Positions 1 to 61,302 of a stretch of 64,000 nucleotides of DNA are shown piece after piece. The notes under the pieces were generated by a model that was not told the DNA's origin, did no database searches, and saw only the letters and a program-made list of their open reading frames with translations. The position numbers and the translations under genes were made by a program. Within the stretch, counting starts at the first letter, position 1; each line of letters starts with the position of its first letter. The DNA comes from a virus. Its lineage: Duplodnaviria; Heunggongvirae; Uroviricota; Caudoviricetes. The stretch is from the IMG/VR virus record IMGVR_UViG_3300020045_008999, positions 448,001 through 512,000 of that record. The stretch is one strand, 5' to 3'.

Positions 1-412
1 CAGTGATACCCGCAGCCCTAGACGATACGAATATTGGACATCCATCGTCAACTAATGATTTTGCTTCTTTACCAAAATAAGTAGATAGTAATTTAATTTG
101 ACCATCAACTCTATTATGTTCCTTAACATATGTTGCGCTGGTGATTAAGTGTGATGCTCTCGACAAAGATGTATCAAATACATCCGGATGGTCAAATTCA
201 CCATATACTACACCCATAGTTGCAATTCGTTCATTCATCTCATCTAAACATGGTAAGAACTTAGGCGCGGTATATACTCTTTGATTTCTATTAAGAACAT
301 CAAATTCAGTAAATATTCCACCTAATGTATAATCTTTCGTCTTTGAAGATGATACATTCTCATTAATGCTCAGTGGATTAGTGTTGTTTTCAACAATTAA
401 TACTGGTTTCAT
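1..412 (-). CDS. Prohead core (maturation) protease, T4 gp21-like; partial, runs off the window start
   Basis: Manual translation from ATG at 412: MKPVLIVENNTNPLSINENVSS...NRNQRVY...YGEFDHP...PIFVSSRAAGIT. NRNxRxY, GE(L/F)DHP (His) and SSR(A/G)xG (Ser) are the gp21 motifs. Confidence 0.9.
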   Translation of the reverse strand, partial: MKPVLIVENNTNPLSINENVSSSKTKDYTLGGIFTEFDVLNRNQRVYTAPKFLPCLDEMNERIATMGVVYGEFDHPDVFDTSLSRASHLITSATYVKEHNRVDGQIKLLSTYFGKEAKSLVDDGCPIFVSSRAAGIT

Positions 413-46527: not shown

Positions 46528-46559
46528 AAAAAGAGTAAATGTATATTTACTCTCTTTTT
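46527..46559. terminator. Bidirectional terminator
   Basis: AAAAAAGAGTAAAT-gtat-ATTTACTCTCTTTTT. Confidence 0.65.
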
Positions 46560-47023
46560 ATAATTTTAATATTATCTATCGAAAATACCCCAATCGACAA
46601 TATTTCAGATTCCAATTCTTCTTGTATAAATATGGAATCAAATCCATTTCCTAGAGCAGCATAAAATGCATCAACACAAGTCCAATAAGGCAATCCTTTG
46701 AAAATTTGATCATCCAATATATTTTGAATTTCATCTTGATCGCTATAATAATATTGCAAAGACTGCATGAATAATTCATAATGATTTGGATTTTCTAAGT
46801 CAAATGTATTTTTCAAATCAAGTTCAACACTATATAAATATTTACCATATTTCTTAGCATAATCAATGTTTTGAGTGAAGAACCAGGTAGGTATATCATT
46901 TTCAACATATCCCTTATTATTACACAAGCTAAATTCATCAAAAATATTATCGGAACCATGATAATATACATTAGATTTCAAAAATACATTAGCATACTCA
47001 TTAAACGTAGTTAAAATAAACAT
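46547..47023 (-). CDS. ADP-ribosyltransferase-like protein (ART-PolyVal-like pattern)
   Basis: YYHGS, WFFT...YAKKYG..LYSVEL, GFDSI, VFSIDNIKII; N-terminus ..TTFNEY. Confidence 0.65.
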   Translation of the reverse strand: MFILTTFNEYANVFLKSNVYYHGSDNIFDEFSLCNNKGYVENDIPTWFFTQNIDYAKKYGKYLYSVELDLKNTFDLENPNHYELFMQSLQYYYSDQDEIQNILDDQIFKGLPYWTCVDAFYAALGNGFDSIFIQEELESEILSIGVFSIDNIKIIKRE

Positions 47024-47067
47024 TTATTGACTTTTATTTATCTATATATTAATTACACAATATATAA

Positions 47068-49765: not shown

Positions 49766-50209
49766 TTATAGTTCGTTTAAATATAACAACCTTTCTTCTA
49801 TTATCATCAGCGTAGATTCAAATCCATCAATGATTGTTAGACTGATAATTGCATCATACCTATCATGAATAACACTAAACATATAAACGTAATCCCCCAA
49901 ATAATGTACATTGTAATATAAATTAGATTGTCCTGGTCCATAAATCGTAATACATCCATATTCCATCCCAACTGTTATGACTTCGAATTGTTTAAATTTA
50001 TTTAGAATTAAATCCGCTTCACTTTGATCAAATATTTCATATTCTAATATTAAGGCATCGTAAACTGAGTTAATATCATCATCAACTTCACCAAAATTAT
50101 ATTTATCATAACGTTCATTTATCTCAAGTAATGCACTTTCAACATAATTAGTACCGAATTGTATATTTGTAATTTTATTAAAATCTTTAAAAAATTTCAC
50201 GTACCTCAA
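49766..50209 (-). CDS. Family A paralog (1 domain), putative head-internal protein
   Basis: INERYDKYNFG, HYLGDYVY, IIDGFES. Confidence 0.7.
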   Translation of the reverse strand: MRYVKFFKDFNKITNIQFGTNYVESALLEINERYDKYNFGEVDDDINSVYDALILEYEIFDQSEADLILNKFKQFEVITVGMEYGCITIYGPGQSNLYYNVHYLGDYVYMFSVIHDRYDAIISLTIIDGFESTLMIIEERLLYLNEL

Positions 50210-50215
50210 TTTAAT

Positions 50216-50578
50216 TTATAATATTTTTATAGCATTAAGCAATGAATCAAATCCATCAATTATATCAATAGATACGACATGACTCGCCCTATGTTCACAA
50301 ATACAATAACAATAATCACCCAGGTGGAAAATCTCGTAAGTAACTCGATCATCTGTATTCACAATTCTAATAAATGCTATCAATGATGGTGTATTAAATA
50401 TGTCAATTGTAAATCTATCATCATCAATACTAATAATTTCATTTTGTTCGTCATCAGAGAATGAAGTACCGTAGTTATAAAATATCTCTATATAGTCAGA
50501 ATGTAGTGACATATCATTTGTAATTTTTTTACCGAATTCATATCTATCAAATCCTTCAAAAATTCTATAATATCTCAT
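50216..50578 (-). CDS. Family A paralog (1 domain)
   Basis: MRYYRIFEGFDRYEFG, HLGDYCY, IIDGFDS. Confidence 0.75.
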   Translation of the reverse strand: MRYYRIFEGFDRYEFGKKITNDMSLHSDYIEIFYNYGTSFSDDEQNEIISIDDDRFTIDIFNTPSLIAFIRIVNTDDRVTYEIFHLGDYCYCICEHRASHVVSIDIIDGFDSLLNAIKIL

Positions 50579-51336
50579 TAGTTAATTTTTATTTTCAAAT
50601 TCTCTATTACATCATCAATGTTATCAATTAACTCCGCGCACACTACCAAATCATATCGATCCATTGTTAATATTGAATAACAATAATCGTCTAAATAAAA
50701 TACATTATAATATTTAGCAGCACCACTATTATAATGTAATGATATAAAAGAATGGTTGGCGACATGTTCAACCAATCTAACATCAGTATCTATCTCATTT
50801 TCAATCAGACTAAACTCATTCACATCAAACATAATTCGATTACCCATTATCTGATTACAAATCGTATCTATATCGCTTCCATTTTCATATTTACCAAAAT
50901 CATATTTATCAAGTCCTTCACTCACTCTCAACCGGTTGGCAGCCGATTCATATCTATGAATAATTTCATCAATTGCATCATATACATTATCAAAAACTTC
51001 AACATCTACACCTCTACCGGCATATAAATTATATTCCGCAACACCAAATGAATAATCACCAAAATAATATAATTCAATCCCATTACCATGTTCTTCGATC
51101 GCAAGGGAACCTTTACTAATCACAATATAATCATAACTATCATTGGTTTCGGATGAGTCGTAATATGTCACATTTATACTCCTAACAGTTAATTCATTTA
51201 TAACAATTTCAACATCGGCAGCTTCAAATACTATCGCAATACTTCTCATATCTCGATAATTATTACCATTATCATCATTAGAATATTTTTTAACATCATA
51301 TTGATCGAAATCTTCAAATATTTTTATATATTTCAT
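50578..51336 (-). CDS. Family A paralog (2 domains)
   Basis: MKYIKIFEDFDQYD; internal VSEGLDKYDFG; YFGDYSF / YLDDYCY. Confidence 0.75.
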   Translation of the reverse strand: MKYIKIFEDFDQYDVKKYSNDDNGNNYRDMRSIAIVFEAADVEIVINELTVRSINVTYYDSSETNDSYDYIVISKGSLAIEEHGNGIELYYFGDYSFGVAEYNLYAGRGVDVEVFDNVYDAIDEIIHRYESAANRLRVSEGLDKYDFGKYENGSDIDTICNQIMGNRIMFDVNEFSLIENEIDTDVRLVEHVANHSFISLHYNSGAAKYYNVFYLDDYCYSILTMDRYDLVVCAELIDNIDDVIENLKIKIN

Positions 51337-52073
51337 GTGTTAAGTTTATTTTTAAGACTGGATATTAATGCATCTAGACCATCAAAGTTTTCCAGTTCAA
51401 TAACAGTGCGTGCACTACCAACCATGGTAGTTAGGTTATAGCAGTAATCACCCAAATAGCATATCATAAACCCATTACTGATAGATATATGATCCACTTC
51501 ACCACTATTATTAGGAACCCGATAAATATGACACAAGCCAGTTAACTCAGATTTTATTAAGTCGATATCCTCTTGTTCAAAGTTATTTCGTTGTCCCATC
51601 ATCAAATCCCATTCGGTTTCTAAATCAGCACCTGATATTTTAGTAAAGTCATATTTGTCAAAACTTTCATTTATATCTTCATCTGGATCCTCACCATCTT
51701 CATGTTCTATTATTTCAATAATATGCGATATGATACTATCTAAGCCATCAAATGGAATTATAGCCATAACATCATCTGAACTATCATCCATAACAGCTAA
51801 ACAATAACAATAGTCACCCAAAGAATATACGTAATAATACTCCCCCTCATCAACCAACACATCAATGAACATCGATCCAACATTTTTATAGTAATTCTCC
51901 ACCACATCTACATCATCATAGTTTATCGCAGCCTTTATATAAGTTATTTCATCATCAGATAAGTCAATTGCCAATTTAAGCATTTCCAGATATTGCTCTT
52001 CTAAGTCAGTATAGATTGGAACGCCAAAATTATATTGGTCAAAGTTTTCGAATAATTTTATATATTTTCCCAT
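51333..52073 (-). CDS. Family A paralog (2 domains)
   Basis: MGKYIKLFENFDQYNFG; internal INESFDKYDF; LGDYCY twice. Confidence 0.75.
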   Translation of the reverse strand: MGKYIKLFENFDQYNFGVPIYTDLEEQYLEMLKLAIDLSDDEITYIKAAINYDDVDVVENYYKNVGSMFIDVLVDEGEYYYVYSLGDYCYCLAVMDDSSDDVMAIIPFDGLDSIISHIIEIIEHEDGEDPDEDINESFDKYDFTKISGADLETEWDLMMGQRNNFEQEDIDLIKSELTGLCHIYRVPNNSGEVDHISISNGFMICYLGDYCYNLTTMVGSARTVIELENFDGLDALISSLKNKLNT

Positions 52074-53264
52074 TTATCGTTTAATATTACTTTTGTGTAT
52101 ATACCCATTATCCCACTTTTCCAATAATTCAATAAGTATCTCAACAGTAGATTCGAATGTATCAACTGTATATATAGCAATGATATCCGCTGGTTTGCGA
52201 TCCATAACTACCAAACTATAGCAATAATCGCCATGATAATGCATTGAAACACTCAATGGGTAGCTATGATTCAGTCTAATTGTTATGGAATTGGTCAAGG
52301 ATAAATTCGGATATTCTTTAATCACATATTTTTCTTCAAATAATTCATAGATCGATTGTATATCAGCAGCATCCAAATCCTCTATACACTCATATAAACT
52401 TAAATACTCGTGTGTTAAATCACCCTCACGAACACCGAAATCATACTGGTCGAAGTTTTCAAATAATTTCATATCAGTTTTACGAATATCACCACAGTTC
52501 TCTACTATTCCACCATGTGTTTTATCCCATTTTTCCAATATTTCTCTAATAATTTCAACAGTAGATTCAAAAGTATCAACTGTGTGTATAGCAATAATAT
52601 CATTTGACAGATTATTCCAAACCATTAAGCTATAGCAATAATCACCATGATAATACATAGAAACACTAGCTGCGTTATTATATTTCAACTCAAATGAAAT
52701 TGATCTAGTTTGAGCGGCCTTAGGGTACTCTTTAATCAAATATTTTTCACCAAATAATTCATACAAAGATTTAATATCATCATTTTCTAAAAGTACACTA
52801 GAGTCATATAGACCAGAAAATTCAAAAGACAAATCGCCCTCTCTAAGGCCGAAATCATATTGGTCGAATTTTTCAAACATTTTTATATTTTCCCATTTTA
52901 TCATTATTTGTTTAATTAATTCGATTGCATCATCTAAGGTATTCAACTTATGAATAACTAATGCTTCATAATTTTGCTCATCAATTTCAGATACCGAATA
53001 ACAATAATCACCATGATAATAAAGTGTCAAACTTAGGTGATCAATCATGGCAGATGCAATCACCATAGTAGATGTTGGTGTTTTTGTAGGATATTCACTA
53101 ATTACATAATTTCCTAACTCAGAATACACCAAGTGTTTAGCATCTTCGTCAAATGGAATTGATGCATGATATGCATGCATGTATTCCGAGTCATCACCAT
53201 TTACAAAAACAGTTCTTCCAAAATCATATGGGTCAAAGTTTTCAAATAATTTTATATGTTTCAT
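52074..53264 (-). CDS. Family A paralog (3 domains)
   Basis: MKHIKLFENFDPYDFG; internal KMFEKFDQYDFG and KLFENFDQYDFG; YHGDYCYS three times. Confidence 0.8.
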   Translation of the reverse strand: MKHIKLFENFDPYDFGRTVFVNGDDSEYMHAYHASIPFDEDAKHLVYSELGNYVISEYPTKTPTSTMVIASAMIDHLSLTLYYHGDYCYSVSEIDEQNYEALVIHKLNTLDDAIELIKQIMIKWENIKMFEKFDQYDFGLREGDLSFEFSGLYDSSVLLENDDIKSLYELFGEKYLIKEYPKAAQTRSISFELKYNNAASVSMYYHGDYCYSLMVWNNLSNDIIAIHTVDTFESTVEIIREILEKWDKTHGGIVENCGDIRKTDMKLFENFDQYDFGVREGDLTHEYLSLYECIEDLDAADIQSIYELFEEKYVIKEYPNLSLTNSITIRLNHSYPLSVSMHYHGDYCYSLVVMDRKPADIIAIYTVDTFESTVEILIELLEKWDNGYIHKSNIKR

Positions 53265-53632
53265 AATTCTATTTTTTTCAATGCTTCTATAACAGACTCA
53301 ATACCATCTACTATTGTCATTTTAACCGGCCTAGTATGTAACCACTCTTTATATACAACAGCATACACATAATCTCCTAAATAATAAACCGTCACGAAAT
53401 TTTCATGGTTTGTTAGTTTCTCTATTTTAACGCACACTTCACCATTATATGTATTCTTGGTATATACAAATATAGATTTCGTTTCGATATGGGTTTCAAT
53501 TTCCCGATATTCAGCAGTATCAAAATCTTGTACGTTTTTAATCATTTCAGCATATGATGCTGAAATATCATCACCATCATATGTTATAAATTCGTATCGG
53601 TCAAAGTTTTCAAATAATTTTATATGTTCCAT
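53261..53632 (-). CDS. Family A paralog (1 domain)
   Basis: MEHIKLFENFDRYEF, YLGDYVY, IVDGIES. Confidence 0.75.
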   Translation of the reverse strand: MEHIKLFENFDRYEFITYDGDDISASYAEMIKNVQDFDTAEYREIETHIETKSIFVYTKNTYNGEVCVKIEKLTNHENFVTVYYLGDYVYAVVYKEWLHTRPVKMTIVDGIESVIEALKKIEL

Positions 53633-53636
53633 AATT

Positions 53637-54050
53637 CTATTTTTTTCCCCATAAATTTTCGTGCAAACATTTTATTACATCATCAATACCATCACACACA
53701 AACAGTTTAACTATATTCTCACTAATTCGGCGAATACTTTCGGCTTTCTCATTATACATTACACCATATGTATAATCCCCCATATACAAAATATAGACAC
53801 AATTCATAATCCGTGGGCTTATACTTGGTGCAACTATGACACCGGTTATTTCGTTACCCCCAACACACAATATTCTCCGAGGACTTACATAATATTCATC
53901 GCCAAAATCTGCTTTAATAAGATCTATATCATCATAAGATATGTCTATAGCCAATTTACGCATGTCGTCGTATATTACTTCGAGATCTTTATATATTCTA
54001 CCAAAATCATATCTATCAAAGCTTTCATACATTTTTACATACCTACCCAT
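53637..54050 (-). CDS. Family A paralog (1 domain), first gene of the array
   Basis: MGRYVKMYESFDRYDFG, YMGDYTY, VCDGIDD; TTTAATATATA at 54055-54065. Confidence 0.75.
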   Translation of the reverse strand: MGRYVKMYESFDRYDFGRIYKDLEVIYDDMRKLAIDISYDDIDLIKADFGDEYYVSPRRILCVGGNEITGVIVAPSISPRIMNCVYILYMGDYTYGVMYNEKAESIRRISENIVKLFVCDGIDDVIKCLHENLWGKK

Positions 54051-54126: not shown

Positions 54127-54507
54127 ATGGATTTAGATAAACAATATTCTGAGATTAAAATTAAATTTGATAATGCGCGCAACAAATTGGCTGAGCTCGA
54201 AAATTCGATAAATTTAAAGGATTCCGACTACTTACTGATACGATCCAAAGATTCGGATAACTATTATATATTAGCTCACGCAAAAGACAAATCAACTATG
54301 AAATCCGGAACGAAATCAGTAGTTGCGGATTATATACGAAAATCTGGCATTGACCTTGATAGGATCAACGGCATAGAATTAATTATGCATTACCAACGAC
54401 CAAGAATTAAAAAATACGATCAATTTATAGATACTATAAATGATGCGGTGGATTCATTGGATGATAAGATAAATGACCTAGGATTCGCATTAAAAAATAA
54501 AAAATAA
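54127..54507 (+). CDS. Family C paralog (1 domain)
   Basis: DY...KSGTKSVVADYIRKSGID..I..I.LI; both promoter types upstream. Confidence 0.65.
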   Translation: MDLDKQYSEIKIKFDNARNKLAELENSINLKDSDYLLIRSKDSDNYYILAHAKDKSTMKSGTKSVVADYIRKSGIDLDRINGIELIMHYQRPRIKKYDQFIDTINDAVDSLDDKINDLGFALKNKK

Positions 54508-54511
54508 CACA

Positions 54512-55081
54512 ATGGACCATTTAAAAAAATTTGATGAACTAATTGAGCTTGGCGATAAAAGACACCGTTTAGCAAAAGAATTGAAGAAATCGGTTGAATA
54601 TGAAAAATGTGATTATAGCATTGCTAAAGTGGACTCGATGGCCTATGAAGTAAGGTTTGTGTTAATCCGCAAAAGTGACAAAAAACAATTAACACACGGA
54701 TCTGCTACCGAGGTTAAGAGATACATTGAAAGAATAGGAATCGATCATAATAATATATTTAACATAGACCTAATCGGTATTATAATAGATAAAGTAGAAC
54801 TAGAACCATATAAAAAATTTATAGAATTAGCTGACGAGGGCGCAAAGAAATTTCGCGAACTCAAAGATTCTAAAATGTTTCATGATGCCGATTATGTAGT
54901 AATCAAGGACGGCCTACCTGGTCATTTCAAATTGATTGATACCAAAACCAGTACTATTAAAACATCCGGTACCCCATCTCGTATTCGAAGTTACCTGAAT
55001 CTGAGAAAAATAGACAAATCAGCAGTTTTTAAATACGAATTAATTGAAATTCAAGCTAAGAAACCTAATCAAAACGGTTAG
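54512..55081 (+). CDS. Family C paralog (2 domains)
   Basis: MDHLKKFDE; THGSATEVKRYIERIGID and TSGTPSRIRSYLNLRKID. Confidence 0.65.
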   Translation: MDHLKKFDELIELGDKRHRLAKELKKSVEYEKCDYSIAKVDSMAYEVRFVLIRKSDKKQLTHGSATEVKRYIERIGIDHNNIFNIDLIGIIIDKVELEPYKKFIELADEGAKKFRELKDSKMFHDADYVVIKDGLPGHFKLIDTKTSTIKTSGTPSRIRSYLNLRKIDKSAVFKYELIEIQAKKPNQNG

Positions 55082-56479: not shown

Positions 56480-57328
56480 ATGACCAAATCAACTTTCCTT
56501 GAAAAGTCCCGATCAATACATGGATATAAGTACACCTATAAAATTGAAACAGATGATATAAAATTCACCGACATAATAACCGTCATATTAGACGAAATTG
56601 AGTATGAACAGCGATGTATCAACCATTTACAGGGAAAATGTCCAGAAAAACTGAACGCTACTAAGACAACGGATCAATTTATTTCGGAATCTAAGGCGGT
56701 GTGGGGACATACTCGCTTTGATTATACTCACACAATTTATACAAATGCGAAAACGCCGGTTAAATTATTAGATACACTTACCGGCCTTACAGTTGAACAA
56801 ATACCAATTATTCATTTGAAGAAAAATATACCGGTGACCATAAATCAATATGATTTCATGGAAATGTCTAAACGAGTTGCTGATTATTCATTAGAATATG
56901 ATCAGTGTATTTATATTAACAAAACCCACAAAGTCAATTTAAAATGTCCAGAACACGGATTATTCTCAGTTGTCCCATTTAATCACCTTAATTATGGATC
57001 TTCTTGCCCACAATGCACTTATAGTGCTGTTTTAAAGGCAATCAAGAAGCCACTTAATAAATTATACATTCAATATATAACACAAAAGAAGTTTATTGGA
57101 TGTGTAGATGAATACCAACTTCCATTTGATATATACATCCCTAGTATTTTATTAGCAATTGATATACAAACTATAAAATCATCTGAGGTAAATCAAATGA
57201 ATATTGTGAAGAATGAATATTGTGAGGAAAATTTCATAGAATATATCCCAATTGACGAAACCACTAATATAAATGATGTACTGAGTGACTATATATTACC
57301 CAAACTCAAATTAATTCATCACATTTAA
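56480..57328 (+). CDS. Homing-endonuclease-like protein (DUF723-type repeats, zinc finger, degenerate Vsr/PD-(D/E)xK C-terminus)
   Basis: FLEKS..IHG.KY.Y repeats, CPEHG.F...P.NHL..G..CPQC, LPFDIYIP, KNEYC. Confidence 0.65.
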   Translation: MTKSTFLEKSRSIHGYKYTYKIETDDIKFTDIITVILDEIEYEQRCINHLQGKCPEKLNATKTTDQFISESKAVWGHTRFDYTHTIYTNAKTPVKLLDTLTGLTVEQIPIIHLKKNIPVTINQYDFMEMSKRVADYSLEYDQCIYINKTHKVNLKCPEHGLFSVVPFNHLNYGSSCPQCTYSAVLKAIKKPLNKLYIQYITQKKFIGCVDEYQLPFDIYIPSILLAIDIQTIKSSEVNQMNIVKNEYCEENFIEYIPIDETTNINDVLSDYILPKLKLIHHI

Positions 57329-57355
57329 TATATAATAAAAGTTATGTATGAAAAA

Positions 57356-57754
57356 ATGAAACATTTGAAACGGTTCAATGAAAATTTAGTAATTATTTTG
57401 CCCGAAGATGGTTCATATACCAAAATAAATAACGATCAATTTATTCAATTTAATAAAAATTATAAAAAAACTACAGATTGCGATATTGTAATTCAAACAG
57501 AAATTAATCGTTTTTTTAAAGCAGCTTCATCTAATGCAATGATGACTTATTCCAAAACAACTGATCCCAATAGAATACGTTTAGGTAATCCAGATGTGTC
57601 GGTAATTAATATAGATTTATACGATGATAACTGGATAATTATTTACTATTATAGAATAGATGGTTTATTAATGGAATTTTATCTATGTGATGGCGAATAT
57701 GGTATAATCCAGTTCACCAATGACTATATTGAAAATAAAAATATTATTATATAA
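57356..57754 (+). CDS. Family B paralog (1 domain), putative head-internal protein
   Basis: MKHLKRFNE, LPEDGSYTKI, DNWI, YLCDGEYG. Confidence 0.75.
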   Translation: MKHLKRFNENLVIILPEDGSYTKINNDQFIQFNKNYKKTTDCDIVIQTEINRFFKAASSNAMMTYSKTTDPNRIRLGNPDVSVINIDLYDDNWIIIYYYRIDGLLMEFYLCDGEYGIIQFTNDYIENKNIII

Positions 57755-57842
57755 AAAAACACATCACAATTATTATAACTATATATTACCAAAACCTAAA
57801 CTGATTAAACATATTTAATATATAACAAAAGCTAAATATGGG

Positions 57843-58580
57843 ATGATATATTTAAAAGGATTCAATGAAAGTTTAGAAAATTTACCACCTGATGGTGGAT
57901 ATTTAAAGTTAAGTTCAAATGAAATGAAAAGTTTCAGAGAACACTACAAAGTGGTAGAATATAATACTACTACTTATGCATATGCGTATAGTATGTTTGA
58001 AGAAAAATGGTTTAAAAAAATTAACCACGAAGACATTTGGTTGGATATTGATCTATTGAGTGATAATTGGATAGATGTCGAAATACAAATACAGTCGGAA
58101 CTAATGTTTTTTTTATGTGATGGTAGTGATGGATTGGAGAAATTATGTGATGACTTTGCTAAATTTATACCAGGAAAATCAATAACATCAGAAATAAACG
58201 AAAATACAACATACTCATTTCCAAATACCGGAAACTATACTAAGTTAAACCCTGATCAATTTGTGGATTTTTCAGACACATACAAACGGATTCATCATTA
58301 TGCGAATAATGTATATCATCCATTAATTGATATTTTTTTCGAAAAAGTAGTAAACGAATTACCCACTAATTCAGTATTAGTAAAAACACCAACTATGGTA
58401 AAATTTAAACAACGAAATCATACTGTAGTCAGTGTGGATTTTTATGAAGATGATTGGGTAGTGTTTAACTATTACAACTTCTTACTAGATAGTGCAATAA
58501 ACTACTATCTATGTGATGGTGAGGACGGTATAATTAAATTTTCAGCAGACTGGGATAAAAATAAACATGACATCAAATGA
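57843..58580 (+). CDS. Family B paralog (2 domains)
   Basis: MIYLKGFNES; internal INEN; LCDG twice. Confidence 0.75.
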   Translation: MIYLKGFNESLENLPPDGGYLKLSSNEMKSFREHYKVVEYNTTTYAYAYSMFEEKWFKKINHEDIWLDIDLLSDNWIDVEIQIQSELMFFLCDGSDGLEKLCDDFAKFIPGKSITSEINENTTYSFPNTGNYTKLNPDQFVDFSDTYKRIHHYANNVYHPLIDIFFEKVVNELPTNSVLVKTPTMVKFKQRNHTVVSVDFYEDDWVVFNYYNFLLDSAINYYLCDGEDGIIKFSADWDKNKHDIK

Positions 58581-59392
58581 AGCATATAATATCATTCGGA
58601 AAATTAAACGAATCCAATCACATTTATTTGCCGGCTGATGGTGATTATAAAGAATTAAATCAATCTGAGTACAATTCTTTTTTAACACAATACCCTACAT
58701 GTAAATTAGATATTACGAACTCTGCTATACTTTTAGATACTTTACAGGCATTAGCTGAAAAATGTGTTGGTGCAGCAATCAGCAATAGAGGTGGTAGTTT
58801 ATCATATAGAATCCAATCTATTACACATTGGATTGACATCGATATGCGAACAGATAACTGGTTTGCAATTGACGCTCAAGTATTATCTGATACATATAAA
58901 TACATATGTGACGGGGAAGACGGGCTTAATAAATTTATTGAAGATTTTACTGGCATTATGCCAATGGTTAAATCAATGCCTATAAAAGAATCATTGAATA
59001 ATGTCTGGCCAGCAGATGGCAAATATTCTAAATTGACCGGTGCCCAATATATTGAATTCAAAGGGTTATGTACTTACCAGTATGAAAAAGATTCAAATAA
59101 ATTAATAGTTGATTCTATTAGTTTCATTTCTAAATTGTTTTCAGATGAAAATTGTAGAATTAACCCAACAAGAAGAAGCATTGTTTTTGATACACAATAC
59201 AAATCAATGAAAATATATGGTGTGCCACATGTGGATTCTTGGTTCATATTTAGGATCATGACATTTGACACCAACCACCCAGGTAATATAGGGGCAGGTC
59301 AACCCACATCCATAGACTTATACCTATGTGATGGTGAAGACGGTGTAACTGAATTTTTGAAAGATTGTAGAGAAATAATAGAAAATACATAA
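58577..59392 (+). CDS. Family B paralog (2 domains)
   Basis: MKHIISFGKLNES; internal IKES; CDGEDG twice. Confidence 0.75.
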   Translation: MKHIISFGKLNESNHIYLPADGDYKELNQSEYNSFLTQYPTCKLDITNSAILLDTLQALAEKCVGAAISNRGGSLSYRIQSITHWIDIDMRTDNWFAIDAQVLSDTYKYICDGEDGLNKFIEDFTGIMPMVKSMPIKESLNNVWPADGKYSKLTGAQYIEFKGLCTYQYEKDSNKLIVDSISFISKLFSDENCRINPTRRSIVFDTQYKSMKIYGVPHVDSWFIFRIMTFDTNHPGNIGAGQPTSIDLYLCDGEDGVTEFLKDCREIIENT

Positions 59393-61194
59393 TGAAGTAT
59401 ATTAAAAAATTTATTAAAATCAATGAGTCTATTGATCATTTATTACCAGAAGAGGGTGGATATGCTAAACTAGGCTATCAAGAACACGGTTTATTCAGCA
59501 TCAGTTACCCAATTGATTACCAATACGATCTTCGTAGTGATATTTTAATGGATTCAATCAAAACCATGGCCGCGTTATGTGGTGATCCAGATTACCAATC
59601 AAGGACACATCTACCTCGCTTGGTATACAAGATTAATCATGATGAATCCTATGTAGATTTAAAGATGCATATGGATAATTGGATCGTTGTGACCAATCAA
59701 TATAGGGATGAGAATCATTATTTTATATGCGATGGTGAAGAAGGACTGAGTAAATTCATCAAACATTGGAATTATAATATTAGAAATAATAAAAACAATT
59801 TAACAATTTTAGAATCAGTTGACTACTTATTACCACCGGACAACAGTTACACCAGAGTAGGTGATACCAGATTTGCTGAATTTGTAAAAGAATACCCTTA
59901 TATAGAAGACGATACGTTAACACCAGAATTGAAAGATGTGATGCGAGTAATATATGAAAAATGTAGTGATGAAAATGCACATCTATCAAAGCGTGAAGCA
60001 TTATGTTCATATGTGACACCAAGTGAAAATCTATGGATTACTGCAACCGCCTCTGCACATACTGATAACTGGTATTCAATTAAATTTAAACTCGATAGTA
60101 TATATGTAAATCATGCGGCATATTACATTTGTGATGGTATTTCGGGTCTGGAAGAATTCTCACAGGACTGGACCGGATCACACCTTATACAAATTGACGA
60201 AAGTGTCTCTTATCTACCAGAAGGATCTTATTCGAAACTAGATGAAACCGACTTATTAAATTTCATAAATACCTATGGGAAACCACGTATCAATTTAGAG
60301 CTAATGGCGGAATTCAAATCTTATCTAAATACTAATGATATTATAATTATAGACCAAATATCTAGGAATGAGATTATCATAGTAGTACATGGTATGAAAA
60401 TAGCAACTAGTATTTCAGAACATACTGATATGTGGATTTCCATCGTTTATGGTAAAGATTTTTATATTTGTGATCAAGAAGCGGGAATGTATGAGTTATT
60501 CGATATGTTATTCAATAATCGTGTTTTAGAAAACGCTTCTTATTTACCAACCGGATTGTACTCAGAAATTAATGCAGATGATTGGACTAATTTCTTACTA
60601 ACATTTGGTACTGGTGACGTTGATAAACATACGATCGATACATTACTAGTTTATGCTAAAAGTATTGACATAGAACCAACTATTAAAAGCTATAATTATG
60701 GTTTCACACGACCAAATGGCGAACAGTTTTACGCAAGCGTATACAAACATGATGATCACTGGATAAGTGTACTAACATCCGATCGTGGCTTATTTTTATG
60801 TGACCAAGAAGATGGAATGATTGCTCTTTTCAGAGATGTTTTAATGCCAAATGAAAAAAATAACGAAACAATGATAACAGAAAGTATAGAAGACGACGTA
60901 GAAGATGGTAGCTATTTAGAAATTGATAGCGACGATGTTTTAAAAATATGGAAAGATTATGGACCATCGTCTTTTGATATAACTGAAATTGAACAATTAG
61001 CAGATACACTTGGTAAGGAATATTCAATCAATCGTTTTGAAAAAGGTAATATAATAACAATATATAGTCATTCACGACACGAGTCCTCACAGGTGTGTAA
61101 ATTCGATGATGGTTGGTTCATTTGTAATAATGAACCAGATGCAAATTTCCTTTGTGATCAAATTGCGGGTGTGATTCAATTTATTAAATTATAA
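59392..61194 (+). CDS. Family B paralog (5 domains)
   Basis: MKYIKKFIKINES; internal ILES, IDES, VLEN, ITES; CD(G/Q) five times. Confidence 0.8.
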   Translation: MKYIKKFIKINESIDHLLPEEGGYAKLGYQEHGLFSISYPIDYQYDLRSDILMDSIKTMAALCGDPDYQSRTHLPRLVYKINHDESYVDLKMHMDNWIVVTNQYRDENHYFICDGEEGLSKFIKHWNYNIRNNKNNLTILESVDYLLPPDNSYTRVGDTRFAEFVKEYPYIEDDTLTPELKDVMRVIYEKCSDENAHLSKREALCSYVTPSENLWITATASAHTDNWYSIKFKLDSIYVNHAAYYICDGISGLEEFSQDWTGSHLIQIDESVSYLPEGSYSKLDETDLLNFINTYGKPRINLELMAEFKSYLNTNDIIIIDQISRNEIIIVVHGMKIATSISEHTDMWISIVYGKDFYICDQEAGMYELFDMLFNNRVLENASYLPTGLYSEINADDWTNFLLTFGTGDVDKHTIDTLLVYAKSIDIEPTIKSYNYGFTRPNGEQFYASVYKHDDHWISVLTSDRGLFLCDQEDGMIALFRDVLMPNEKNNETMITESIEDDVEDGSYLEIDSDDVLKIWKDYGPSSFDITEIEQLADTLGKEYSINRFEKGNIITIYSHSRHESSQVCKFDDGWFICNNEPDANFLCDQIAGVIQFIKL

Positions 61195-61195
61195 T

Positions 61196-61226
61196 AAAAA
61201 GAGAGAAACCTTCGGTTTCTCTCTTT
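61196..61226. terminator. Bidirectional terminator with UUCG loop
   Basis: AAAGAGAGAAACC-TTCG-GTTTCTCTCTTT between the family B operon and the tRNA 3' end. Confidence 0.85.
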
Positions 61227-61230
61227 CTAG

Positions 61231-61302
61231 TTACGATACTAGGGCTCAAACCTAGGATGAGTGCGCCAAAAGCACTTGTGTTATCAACTACACCATATCG
61301 CA
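61231..61302 (-). tRNA. tRNA-Gln (anticodon UUG); CCA not encoded
   Basis: TGCGATA/TATCGTA acceptor (U1-A72), GTGT/ACAC D stem, AGTGC-TTTTGGC-GCACT anticodon arm, CTAGG-TTTGAGC-CCTAG T arm; 72 nt. Confidence 0.9.

Follow-up and report, generated by a model that had tools for sequence, protein, structure and literature searches.

The stretch of DNA analysed here (the window, 64,000 nucleotides, G000:C1:448001-512000) belongs to an IMG/VR virus record of 596,785 bp, which is estimated to be 98% complete and has a G+C content of about 31%. It contains four consecutive genes, B1 to B4, which together encode ten copies of a small domain (family B), each copy preceded by a short motif with a Glu after which the protein might be cut. 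Positions are those of the window unless prefixed with C1, which marks record coordinates.

The gene array and its repeated domain

All four genes are on the plus strand. B1 (57344-57754, 136 amino acids, aa) encodes a single domain with a candidate cut after Glu13 (codon 57380-57382); its true start is likely Met5 at 57356, which would give the N-terminus MKHLKRFNEN. Two domains are encoded by B2 (57843-58580, 245 aa; candidate cuts after Glu9, 57867-57869, and Glu120, 58200-58202) and two by B3 (58577-59392, 271 aa; candidate cuts after Glu12, 58610-58612, and Glu138, 58988-58990). B4 (59392-61194, 600 aa) encodes five, with candidate cuts after Glu12 (59425-59427), Glu141 (59812-59814), Glu270 (60199-60201), Glu380 (60529-60531) and Glu497 (60880-60882). 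The stop and start codons overlap at the B2/B3 and B3/B4 boundaries.

An earlier description made from the letters of the window (the sequence-only reading) had counted four genes with 1, 2, 2 and 5 domains and had placed a Glu site before each copy. Regular expression scans agreed with it exactly on both points. The pattern [YFL][LIF]CD[GQ]xxG matched 1, 2, 2 and 5 times in B1-B4, once in each predicted domain, D-x-W was present in 10/10 domains, and all ten junction motifs quoted at the time were recovered (FNEN, FNES, INEN, LNES, IKES, INES, ILES, IDES, VLEN and ITES), lying about 11-13 residues ahead of the conserved G-x-Y. In its general form, [LIVF]-x-E-[SN], the motif occurs at 4/4 N-termini of the array and at 6/6 internal junctions, as well as in the eleventh copy described below. 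There is a single extra motif of the type h-x-E-[SN] (h, hydrophobic) in B1-B4, IIEN, at the C-terminal end of B3.

Cutting the proteins at these motifs yields ten segments of 106-136 aa, which can be aligned over their full length with pairwise identities of 17-33%. Seven positions (E3, Y15, D84, W86, C102, D103 and G107) are invariant among the ten copies, and with a hidden Markov model (HMM) built from them each copy scored 1e-26 to 1e-42. Family B is a genuine repeated domain and not a product of chance. The only additional copy in the whole genome (597 kb) is a solitary one at C1:311997-312383 on the plus strand (E 1e-22), which starts with MKYIKTFSLNES. This eleventh copy adjoins large genes bearing a structural-gene promoter motif, and it has a close homolog, P0036, from another metagenome.

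Homologs and predicted fold of the domain

When 1.84 billion cluster representatives were searched with the profile, 308 proteins passed E<=1e-3, of which 37 also passed E<=1e-10; they have 1-6 tandem copies of the domain and are all of them unnamed metagenomic proteins. The 2848-aa protein P0005, with 39 matched stretches, was rejected as a homolog: it consists of a tandem 59-aa satellite-like repeat, has no family motifs, and its score was a sum of weak ones. Orthologs with 76% identity and domain-by-domain orthology are present in other metagenomes. B1-B4 had no match in Pfam or PHROGs, a Pfam search with 30 homologs gave only three single matches at chance level, and a sequence profile search of the PDB found no relative of the domain. 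Neither blastn nor tblastn detected family B in 50,697 phage records, and a search of viral and metagenome contigs for related loci, using B4, B3, P0002 and P0150, found nothing.

An AlphaFold2 model of a single domain, calculated for B1 with 30 single-domain homologs in the input, had a predicted local distance difference test score (pLDDT) of 81 and a predicted template modelling score (pTM) of 0.75. The predicted order of elements is one strand, two helices, five strands and a C-terminal helix, residues 1-24 of B1 being coil. In the model D-x-W is at the turn preceding strand 4 and C-D is where the last strand ends and the final helix begins; judged from this topology, the residues of the two motifs probably cluster together. 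Foldseek gave no match at E<=1e-3 in the PDB or BFVD, and the wide VIA-align and ESM Atlas searches gave no convincing structural neighbour; the best VIA-align Z score, 7.9, was in a range that the tool rates as common for alpha/beta sandwiches. The domains are acidic, with pI values of 4.1-5.2.

The Cys-Asp pair had been described as invariant and as possibly catalytic. This does not hold for the Cys, which is Ala in domain 1 of the orthologs P0002 and P0003 and which shows near but not complete invariance in the first domain of 32 two-domain homologs, and there is no His among the invariant columns. Because the Cys is replaced by Ala in two orthologous domains, and because a conserved His is lacking, a catalytic Cys-Asp is unlikely on the sequence evidence.

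The head genes of the phage and the Glu motif

The genome is that of a megaphage of the Mahaphage clade. Its major capsid protein (C1:444612-446285) is of the T4 gp23 type (PF07068, E 7e-25) and shares 51-67% identity with the capsid proteins of LR745206, LR756502, LR756504 and LR756501, which are uncultured phages of 634-735 kb, and 30% with those of the Lak phages. These megaphages have the largest phage genomes known, and none of them has been cultured (PMC9723777). Adjoining the capsid gene, on the minus strand, is a gene for a protein of 680-699 aa in which a head protease appears to be fused to a scaffold (G000:C1:446370-448469; its 5' part is at window positions 2-412 or 2-469). The N-terminal 270 residues match head maturation proteases (phrog_207, E 2e-31), and a BLASTP alignment with T4 gp21 (E 1e-6) spans the LLIE/LIVE N-terminus and the His motif, while the remainder of the protein looks like a scaffold. 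T4, in contrast, has separate genes for gp21 and gp22. All three features looked for, a gp21-type protease, a scaffold and a gp23-type shell gene, were found in the genome, and we propose that the fusion product is the enzyme which cuts the array proteins.

In T4, gp21 cuts after Glu at ITE-, LTE- and LIE-like sites; gp23, gp24, Alt and the internal proteins lose their N-terminal propeptides in this way, and the scaffold is chopped into small pieces (PMC5694885; PMC9026906). The motif of the array recurs in the corresponding proteins of this phage. The capsid protein has SINEN about 20 residues ahead of the conserved N-arm, at the end of its N-terminal propeptide, and an h-x-E-N sequence stands at this boundary in this phage and in 7 relatives (SINEN, QINEN, QIHEN, QMNEN, TINEN). 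In the protease-scaffold protein the motif [LIVM]-x-E-[SN] occurs 19 times where 1.9 would be expected (Poisson p 2e-13), by a wide margin the strongest enrichment among 869 open reading frames (ORFs). Two of its sites (IVEN, INEN) are at the protease N-terminus, aligned with LIE of T4 gp21, and the scaffold region has 8-11 copies of a 14-residue repeat, Y-S-E-Y-I-A-E-N-L-D-x-N-I-x, with one Glu site per unit. In addition, a 120-aa protein (C1:288736-289098, minus strand) can be aligned with the capsid protein (E 7e-6, 44% identity over 45 residues); the alignment begins precisely at I-N-E, and MKHIKG takes the place of the 41-residue propeptide of the capsid protein. It may be a mimic of the capsid arm or a small capsid accessory protein.

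Within the array, the AlphaFold model of the two-domain protein B3 (pLDDT 74) has both domains folded confidently, and its sole long stretches with pLDDT <50 are residues 1-14 (the leader), 133-139 (the I-K-E-S junction) and 166-172. The position of Glu138 is invariant in 32 two-domain homologs. All four internal Glu residues of B4 are kept in the orthologs P0002 (6 domains, the sixth gained relative to B4) and P0003 (5 domains), where the linkers differ in length and sequence, and both Glu residues of B2 are kept in its ortholog P0006 despite an insertion or deletion in the linker. For the family as a whole, [LIVMF]-x-E-[SN] was found in 116 of 151 linkers, compared with 27.7 in shuffled linkers. 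An invariant Glu set in a linker that is variable and apparently unstructured is the pattern to be expected of a recognition site. The sequence-only reading had stated that it would fall if the junction Glu were not conserved in orthologs; the Glu turned out to be conserved both there and in the wider family. Its assignment of the Glu to a site of the head-protease type receives circumstantial support from the same motif at the capsid propeptide boundary and in the scaffold. The alternative that N-E-S is an N-glycosylation sequon was rejected, as the Asn position varies (K, L, D, T) and the Glu does not.

The N-terminal leader

The array proteins begin with MKHLKRFNE, MIYLKGFNE, MKHIISFGKLNE and MKYIKKFIKINE. 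Nearly all members of the metagenomic family begin with M-K-Y-L-K-x-F-[NE]-E. Among 146 of them the leader has the consensus M-K-Y-L-K-x-F-[EN]-E-[FS], with the strongest conservation, after that of Met and Lys, at positions 4 (L/I) and 7 (F/Y). The T4 leaders, as read from NC_000866, are MKTYQEFIAE in IPII and IPIII and MKTFKEF...ITE in IPI, and mutational mapping in T4 assigned targeting to residues 4 and 7 and processing to residues 8 and 10 (PMC9026906). At the level of sequence, the family B leader matches the T4 targeting determinants: residue 4 is hydrophobic, residue 7 is Phe, and h-x-E follows.

The leader is not confined to family B. In this genome some 22-42 ORFs of unrelated sequence carry it, and h-N-E-[SN] occurs 16 times at residues 4-20, compared with 4.8 expected. 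A strict DNA pattern for M-K-[YH]-I-K-x-F matched 5, 6, 5 and 9 times in the genomes of this phage and of three related megaphages without family B, compared with 0-1 times for the reversed control. The sequence MKYLKKFNES heads unrelated passengers on 14 other viral contigs, one of which (1/14) has a weak family B match; judged by eye, the passengers include acetyltransferase-like, leucine-rich repeat (LRR)-like and zinc-ribbon-like proteins. The ten of these 14 contigs that were checked are mostly fragments of large phages, 11-40% complete, and three of them contain a gp23-type capsid gene, each with I-N-E-N. Since the leader occurs on unrelated proteins in this genome, in relatives without family B and on other viral contigs, it is not part of the domain; by its distribution in the sequences it is a portable tag. 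The earlier proposal of a targeting peptide is thus supported circumstantially, by this behaviour and by the resemblance to the T4 capsid targeting sequence.

Two other explanations of the leader were considered and rejected. A role in translation start or in the mRNA does not agree with the internal recurrence of the motif or with the variation of synonymous codons within the leader, which indicates selection on the peptide and not on the mRNA. A signal peptide would have a hydrophobic core, and the leader has none.

Relation to family A

A second array, family A (7 genes, 11 domains), is at 49766-54050 on the minus strand and is built alike, with this leader in front and a Glu at each junction. 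The sequence-only reading had suggested that the two families are distant relatives, a question for which it named HMM-HMM comparison. With hhalign the ten family B copies of the window and the 11 family A copies gave a probability of 2.3%. A broader family B profile aligned with family A across the whole domain at 92.7% (E 4e-7), leaders included, and at 45.7% (E 2e-4) in the same register after the leaders had been trimmed; the similarity thus falls once the leaders are removed. The broader HMM also touched one family A member and two genes of an array near 237-239 kb, with E values from 1e-4 to 7e-3. The families resemble each other in leader, Glu at each junction, size, predicted order of elements and positions of the motifs (GDY corresponding to DxW, and DGxDS to CDGxxG). 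The suggested kinship is plausible, and a common origin of families A and B is likely, although not established.

Between array A and the gene of a UvsX-like recombinase there are two adjacent small genes on the plus strand (54127-54507 and 54512-55081), apparent paralogs with one and two copies of a unit of about 90 aa. This pair (54127-55081) would be a third small repeat family; it had no Pfam or PHROG match.

Expression signals and neighbouring genes

A promoter-like motif, TAATATATA, is located upstream of B1 (57326-57334) and of B2 (57816-57824), on the plus strand in both cases, and the copy before B2 probably drives B2, B3 and B4 as a single transcript. Of the 175 occurrences of the motif in the genome, 125 fall within 70 nt upstream of a gene start, and among its positions are those ahead of the major capsid and baseplate wedge genes. 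Genes carrying the leader are enriched behind it (13/22, compared with 125/869 overall; p 1e-6). It is likely, although not proven, that TAATATATA is a late promoter.

Both copies lie within a repeated element of about 60 nt (57288-57350 before B1 and 57778-57840 before B2, 80% identical), which holds inverted TATATATTA / TAATATATA copies. Between the UvsX-like recombinase gene and the array is an HNH/homing endonuclease gene (56480-57328, plus strand; phrog_559, E 3e-25), and the B2 copy of the element still reads like the last 13 codons of this gene, which ends before B1; the duplicated unit therefore included the 3' end of the upstream gene. Directly after the B4 stop codon there is a strong 16-bp palindromic hairpin (61195-61229), shared with a convergent tRNA-Gln gene (61230-61302, minus strand), which is probably a two-way terminator.

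Further genes stand behind TAATATATA. A small gene on the minus strand (46547-47023), behind TAATATATA at 47043-47051, starts with MFILTTFNE. In C1:102917-174569 there are at least 17 paralogs of about 245-350 aa, which start with MKNLISKEEKDRIDLIC...YSINSDG and stand behind TAATATATA. An LRR-like protein on the viral contig L012, related to these paralogs, carries the leader MKYLKKFNES instead.

Discussion

On balance we favour, with modest confidence, the view that B1-B4 are head-cargo polyproteins: a T4-like leader would get them loaded, and cutting would take place behind the Glu of each junction. The proteins would presumably be made late. The leader of 9-13 residues (M-K-[YH]-[IL]-K-x-F ... 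h-x-E) would bind the scaffold core of the prohead, and the protein bound in this way would become enclosed as the capsid shell forms. The gp21-type head protease would then cut at each [LIVF]-x-E-[SN] site, behind the Glu, removing the leader and freeing the 2-5 tandem domains as acidic alpha/beta domains of 12-15 kDa. These would stay in the head with the DNA and would probably be delivered to the host upon infection. Packaging, cleavage, delivery and the function of the domain are all steps that we infer. By analogy with IPI of T4, the domains might be diversified binders or inhibitors of host factors, which is a guess, as is the term effector that had been applied to them.

Several observations weigh against this interpretation. 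The array proteins are known here from their genes, and the clade has no cultured member (PMC9723777). With pI values of 4.1-5.2 the domains are unlike the basic IPII and IPIII of T4. Family B is absent from the complete genomes of the four closest megaphages, in which its profile gave one weak match (E 0.005), hence the family is dispensable. The match of the protease to PF03420 (S77), with E 1e-5 and 23.4 bits, is under the curated cut-off of 27, and most of the 19 motifs in the protease-scaffold protein belong to a single internal repeat and cannot be counted as independent. The P1' residue, in T4 mostly Ala, is Ser or Asn here. Since the conserved part of each repeat unit begins with the Glu motif, tandem duplication alone would copy it to every junction, and the conservation of the Glu could reflect a role in folding or binding instead of cutting. 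Finally, TAATATATA is also present ahead of the HNH endonuclease gene, and for this reason a late-only role of the motif is not proven.

The main rival explanation builds on the place of the Glu motif in the repeat unit. The proteins may remain uncut and act as binders or decoys of several domains within the infected cell. In that case h-x-E-[SN] would cap the domain at its N-terminus and be required for folding or for contact with a ligand, and the leader would serve, for instance, oligomerisation, stability or expression. Tandem-domain proteins commonly exist without processing, duplication would account for a motif at every junction, the conserved LP-x-x-G-x-Y follows closely behind the Glu, and some linkers of the homologs retain whole leaders (MKYLKLFEEF), indicating gene fusion and not designed sites. 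We nevertheless hold this explanation to be rather unlikely, given that the leader and the junction are predicted to be low-confidence coil outside the fold, that the same motif is found at the capsid propeptide boundary and throughout the scaffold, and that the leader is attached to unrelated folds and, by its synonymous codons, appears to be selected as a peptide and not as mRNA.

It is improbable, in our judgement, that the leader directs the proteins elsewhere, to another part of the virion, to the cell envelope or to a phage compartment, and that the Glu sites are cut by another protease or not at all. The leader fits the T4 capsid targeting sequence at the mapped determinants and lacks the hydrophobic core of a signal peptide, the head protease is the only protease of the genome with a matching known specificity, and the possible capsid-arm mimic of 120 aa ties the leader to the propeptide boundary of the capsid protein. 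On the other side, short, basic and amphipathic peptides such as this leader serve many targeting systems. Decay of duplicated DNA without a function of its own would agree with the strong divergence of the copies (17-33% identity) and with the lack of the family in the four closest megaphages. All four reading frames are open, however, and seven positions are invariant across the ten copies; other metagenomes contain orthologs with 76% identity and show domain-by-domain orthology, the motifs of the fold recur in about 300 cluster representatives, and the structure models are confident. We consider decay very improbable.

If B1-B4 are indeed head cargo, it is useful to compare them with known systems. 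They resemble the T4 proteins IPI, IPII, IPIII and Alt in having a short M-K leader in which residue 4 is hydrophobic or aromatic and residue 7 is Phe, with a hydrophobic-x-Glu end that in T4 is cut by gp21. Similar, too, are the diverse and fast-evolving passengers behind a shared leader, and the presence of gp21-, scaffold- and gp23-type head genes in the genome. The differences are that the family B domain has no sequence or detected fold relation to any of the internal proteins, that up to five domains follow one leader with a site before each, a layout which the T4 internal proteins do not have, and that the family B proteins are acidic, with Ser or Asn and not Ala at P1'. Packaging and ejection, moreover, are here deduced from genes.

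In the giant phages phiKZ and SPN3US, with the proteases gp175 and gp245, there are inner-body proteins and tandem arrays of diverged head paralogs; the propeptides of the paralogs contain x-E motifs, some at several sites (PMC5694885). Diverged paralog arrays of varying number and shared N-terminal propeptides with x-E motifs are thus common to these giant phages and to the one described here. The hydrophobic P3 residue is as in T4, whereas phiKZ has S/A/G-x-E, and the repeats occur here within one polypeptide as well as between genes. Neither B1-B4 nor the 30 homologs matched PF12699 or another Pfam or PHROG family, so there is no homology with the phiKZ/SPN3US proteins. The scaffold core proteins of T4 (gp22, gp67 and gp68), which gp21 cuts into small peptides, provide a precedent for many sites in one chain, and in the scaffold of this phage there is a site every 14 residues. 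The fragments of the core are discarded, in contrast to the pieces between the family B sites, which are folded domains under purifying constraint and therefore presumably the product and not waste.

A more general proposal is that a portable, generic leader of 9-13 residues with a Glu site serves the megaphages of the Mahaphage group to bring dozens of unrelated proteins into their very large capsids, and that they have extended this system to polyproteins of up to five or six domains, which are cut apart inside the capsid. We regard this as a real possibility that falls somewhat short of an even chance. To our knowledge, no phage larger than 500 kb has been cultured. If the proposal is true, the combination of leader and h-x-E-[SN] rule would predict head cargo, together with its mature ends, among the approximately 870 mostly unannotated genes of this phage, and it would make an exact prediction for metaproteomics, namely semi-tryptic peptides starting after each Glu listed above. 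The loading mechanism of T4 would then be far older and more widespread than the T-even phages. With polyproteins as cargo, each packaging event would deliver proteins in multiplied number and variety, and the tandem-domain form would be a new route by which a phage can raise both the dose and the diversity of the proteins that it delivers.

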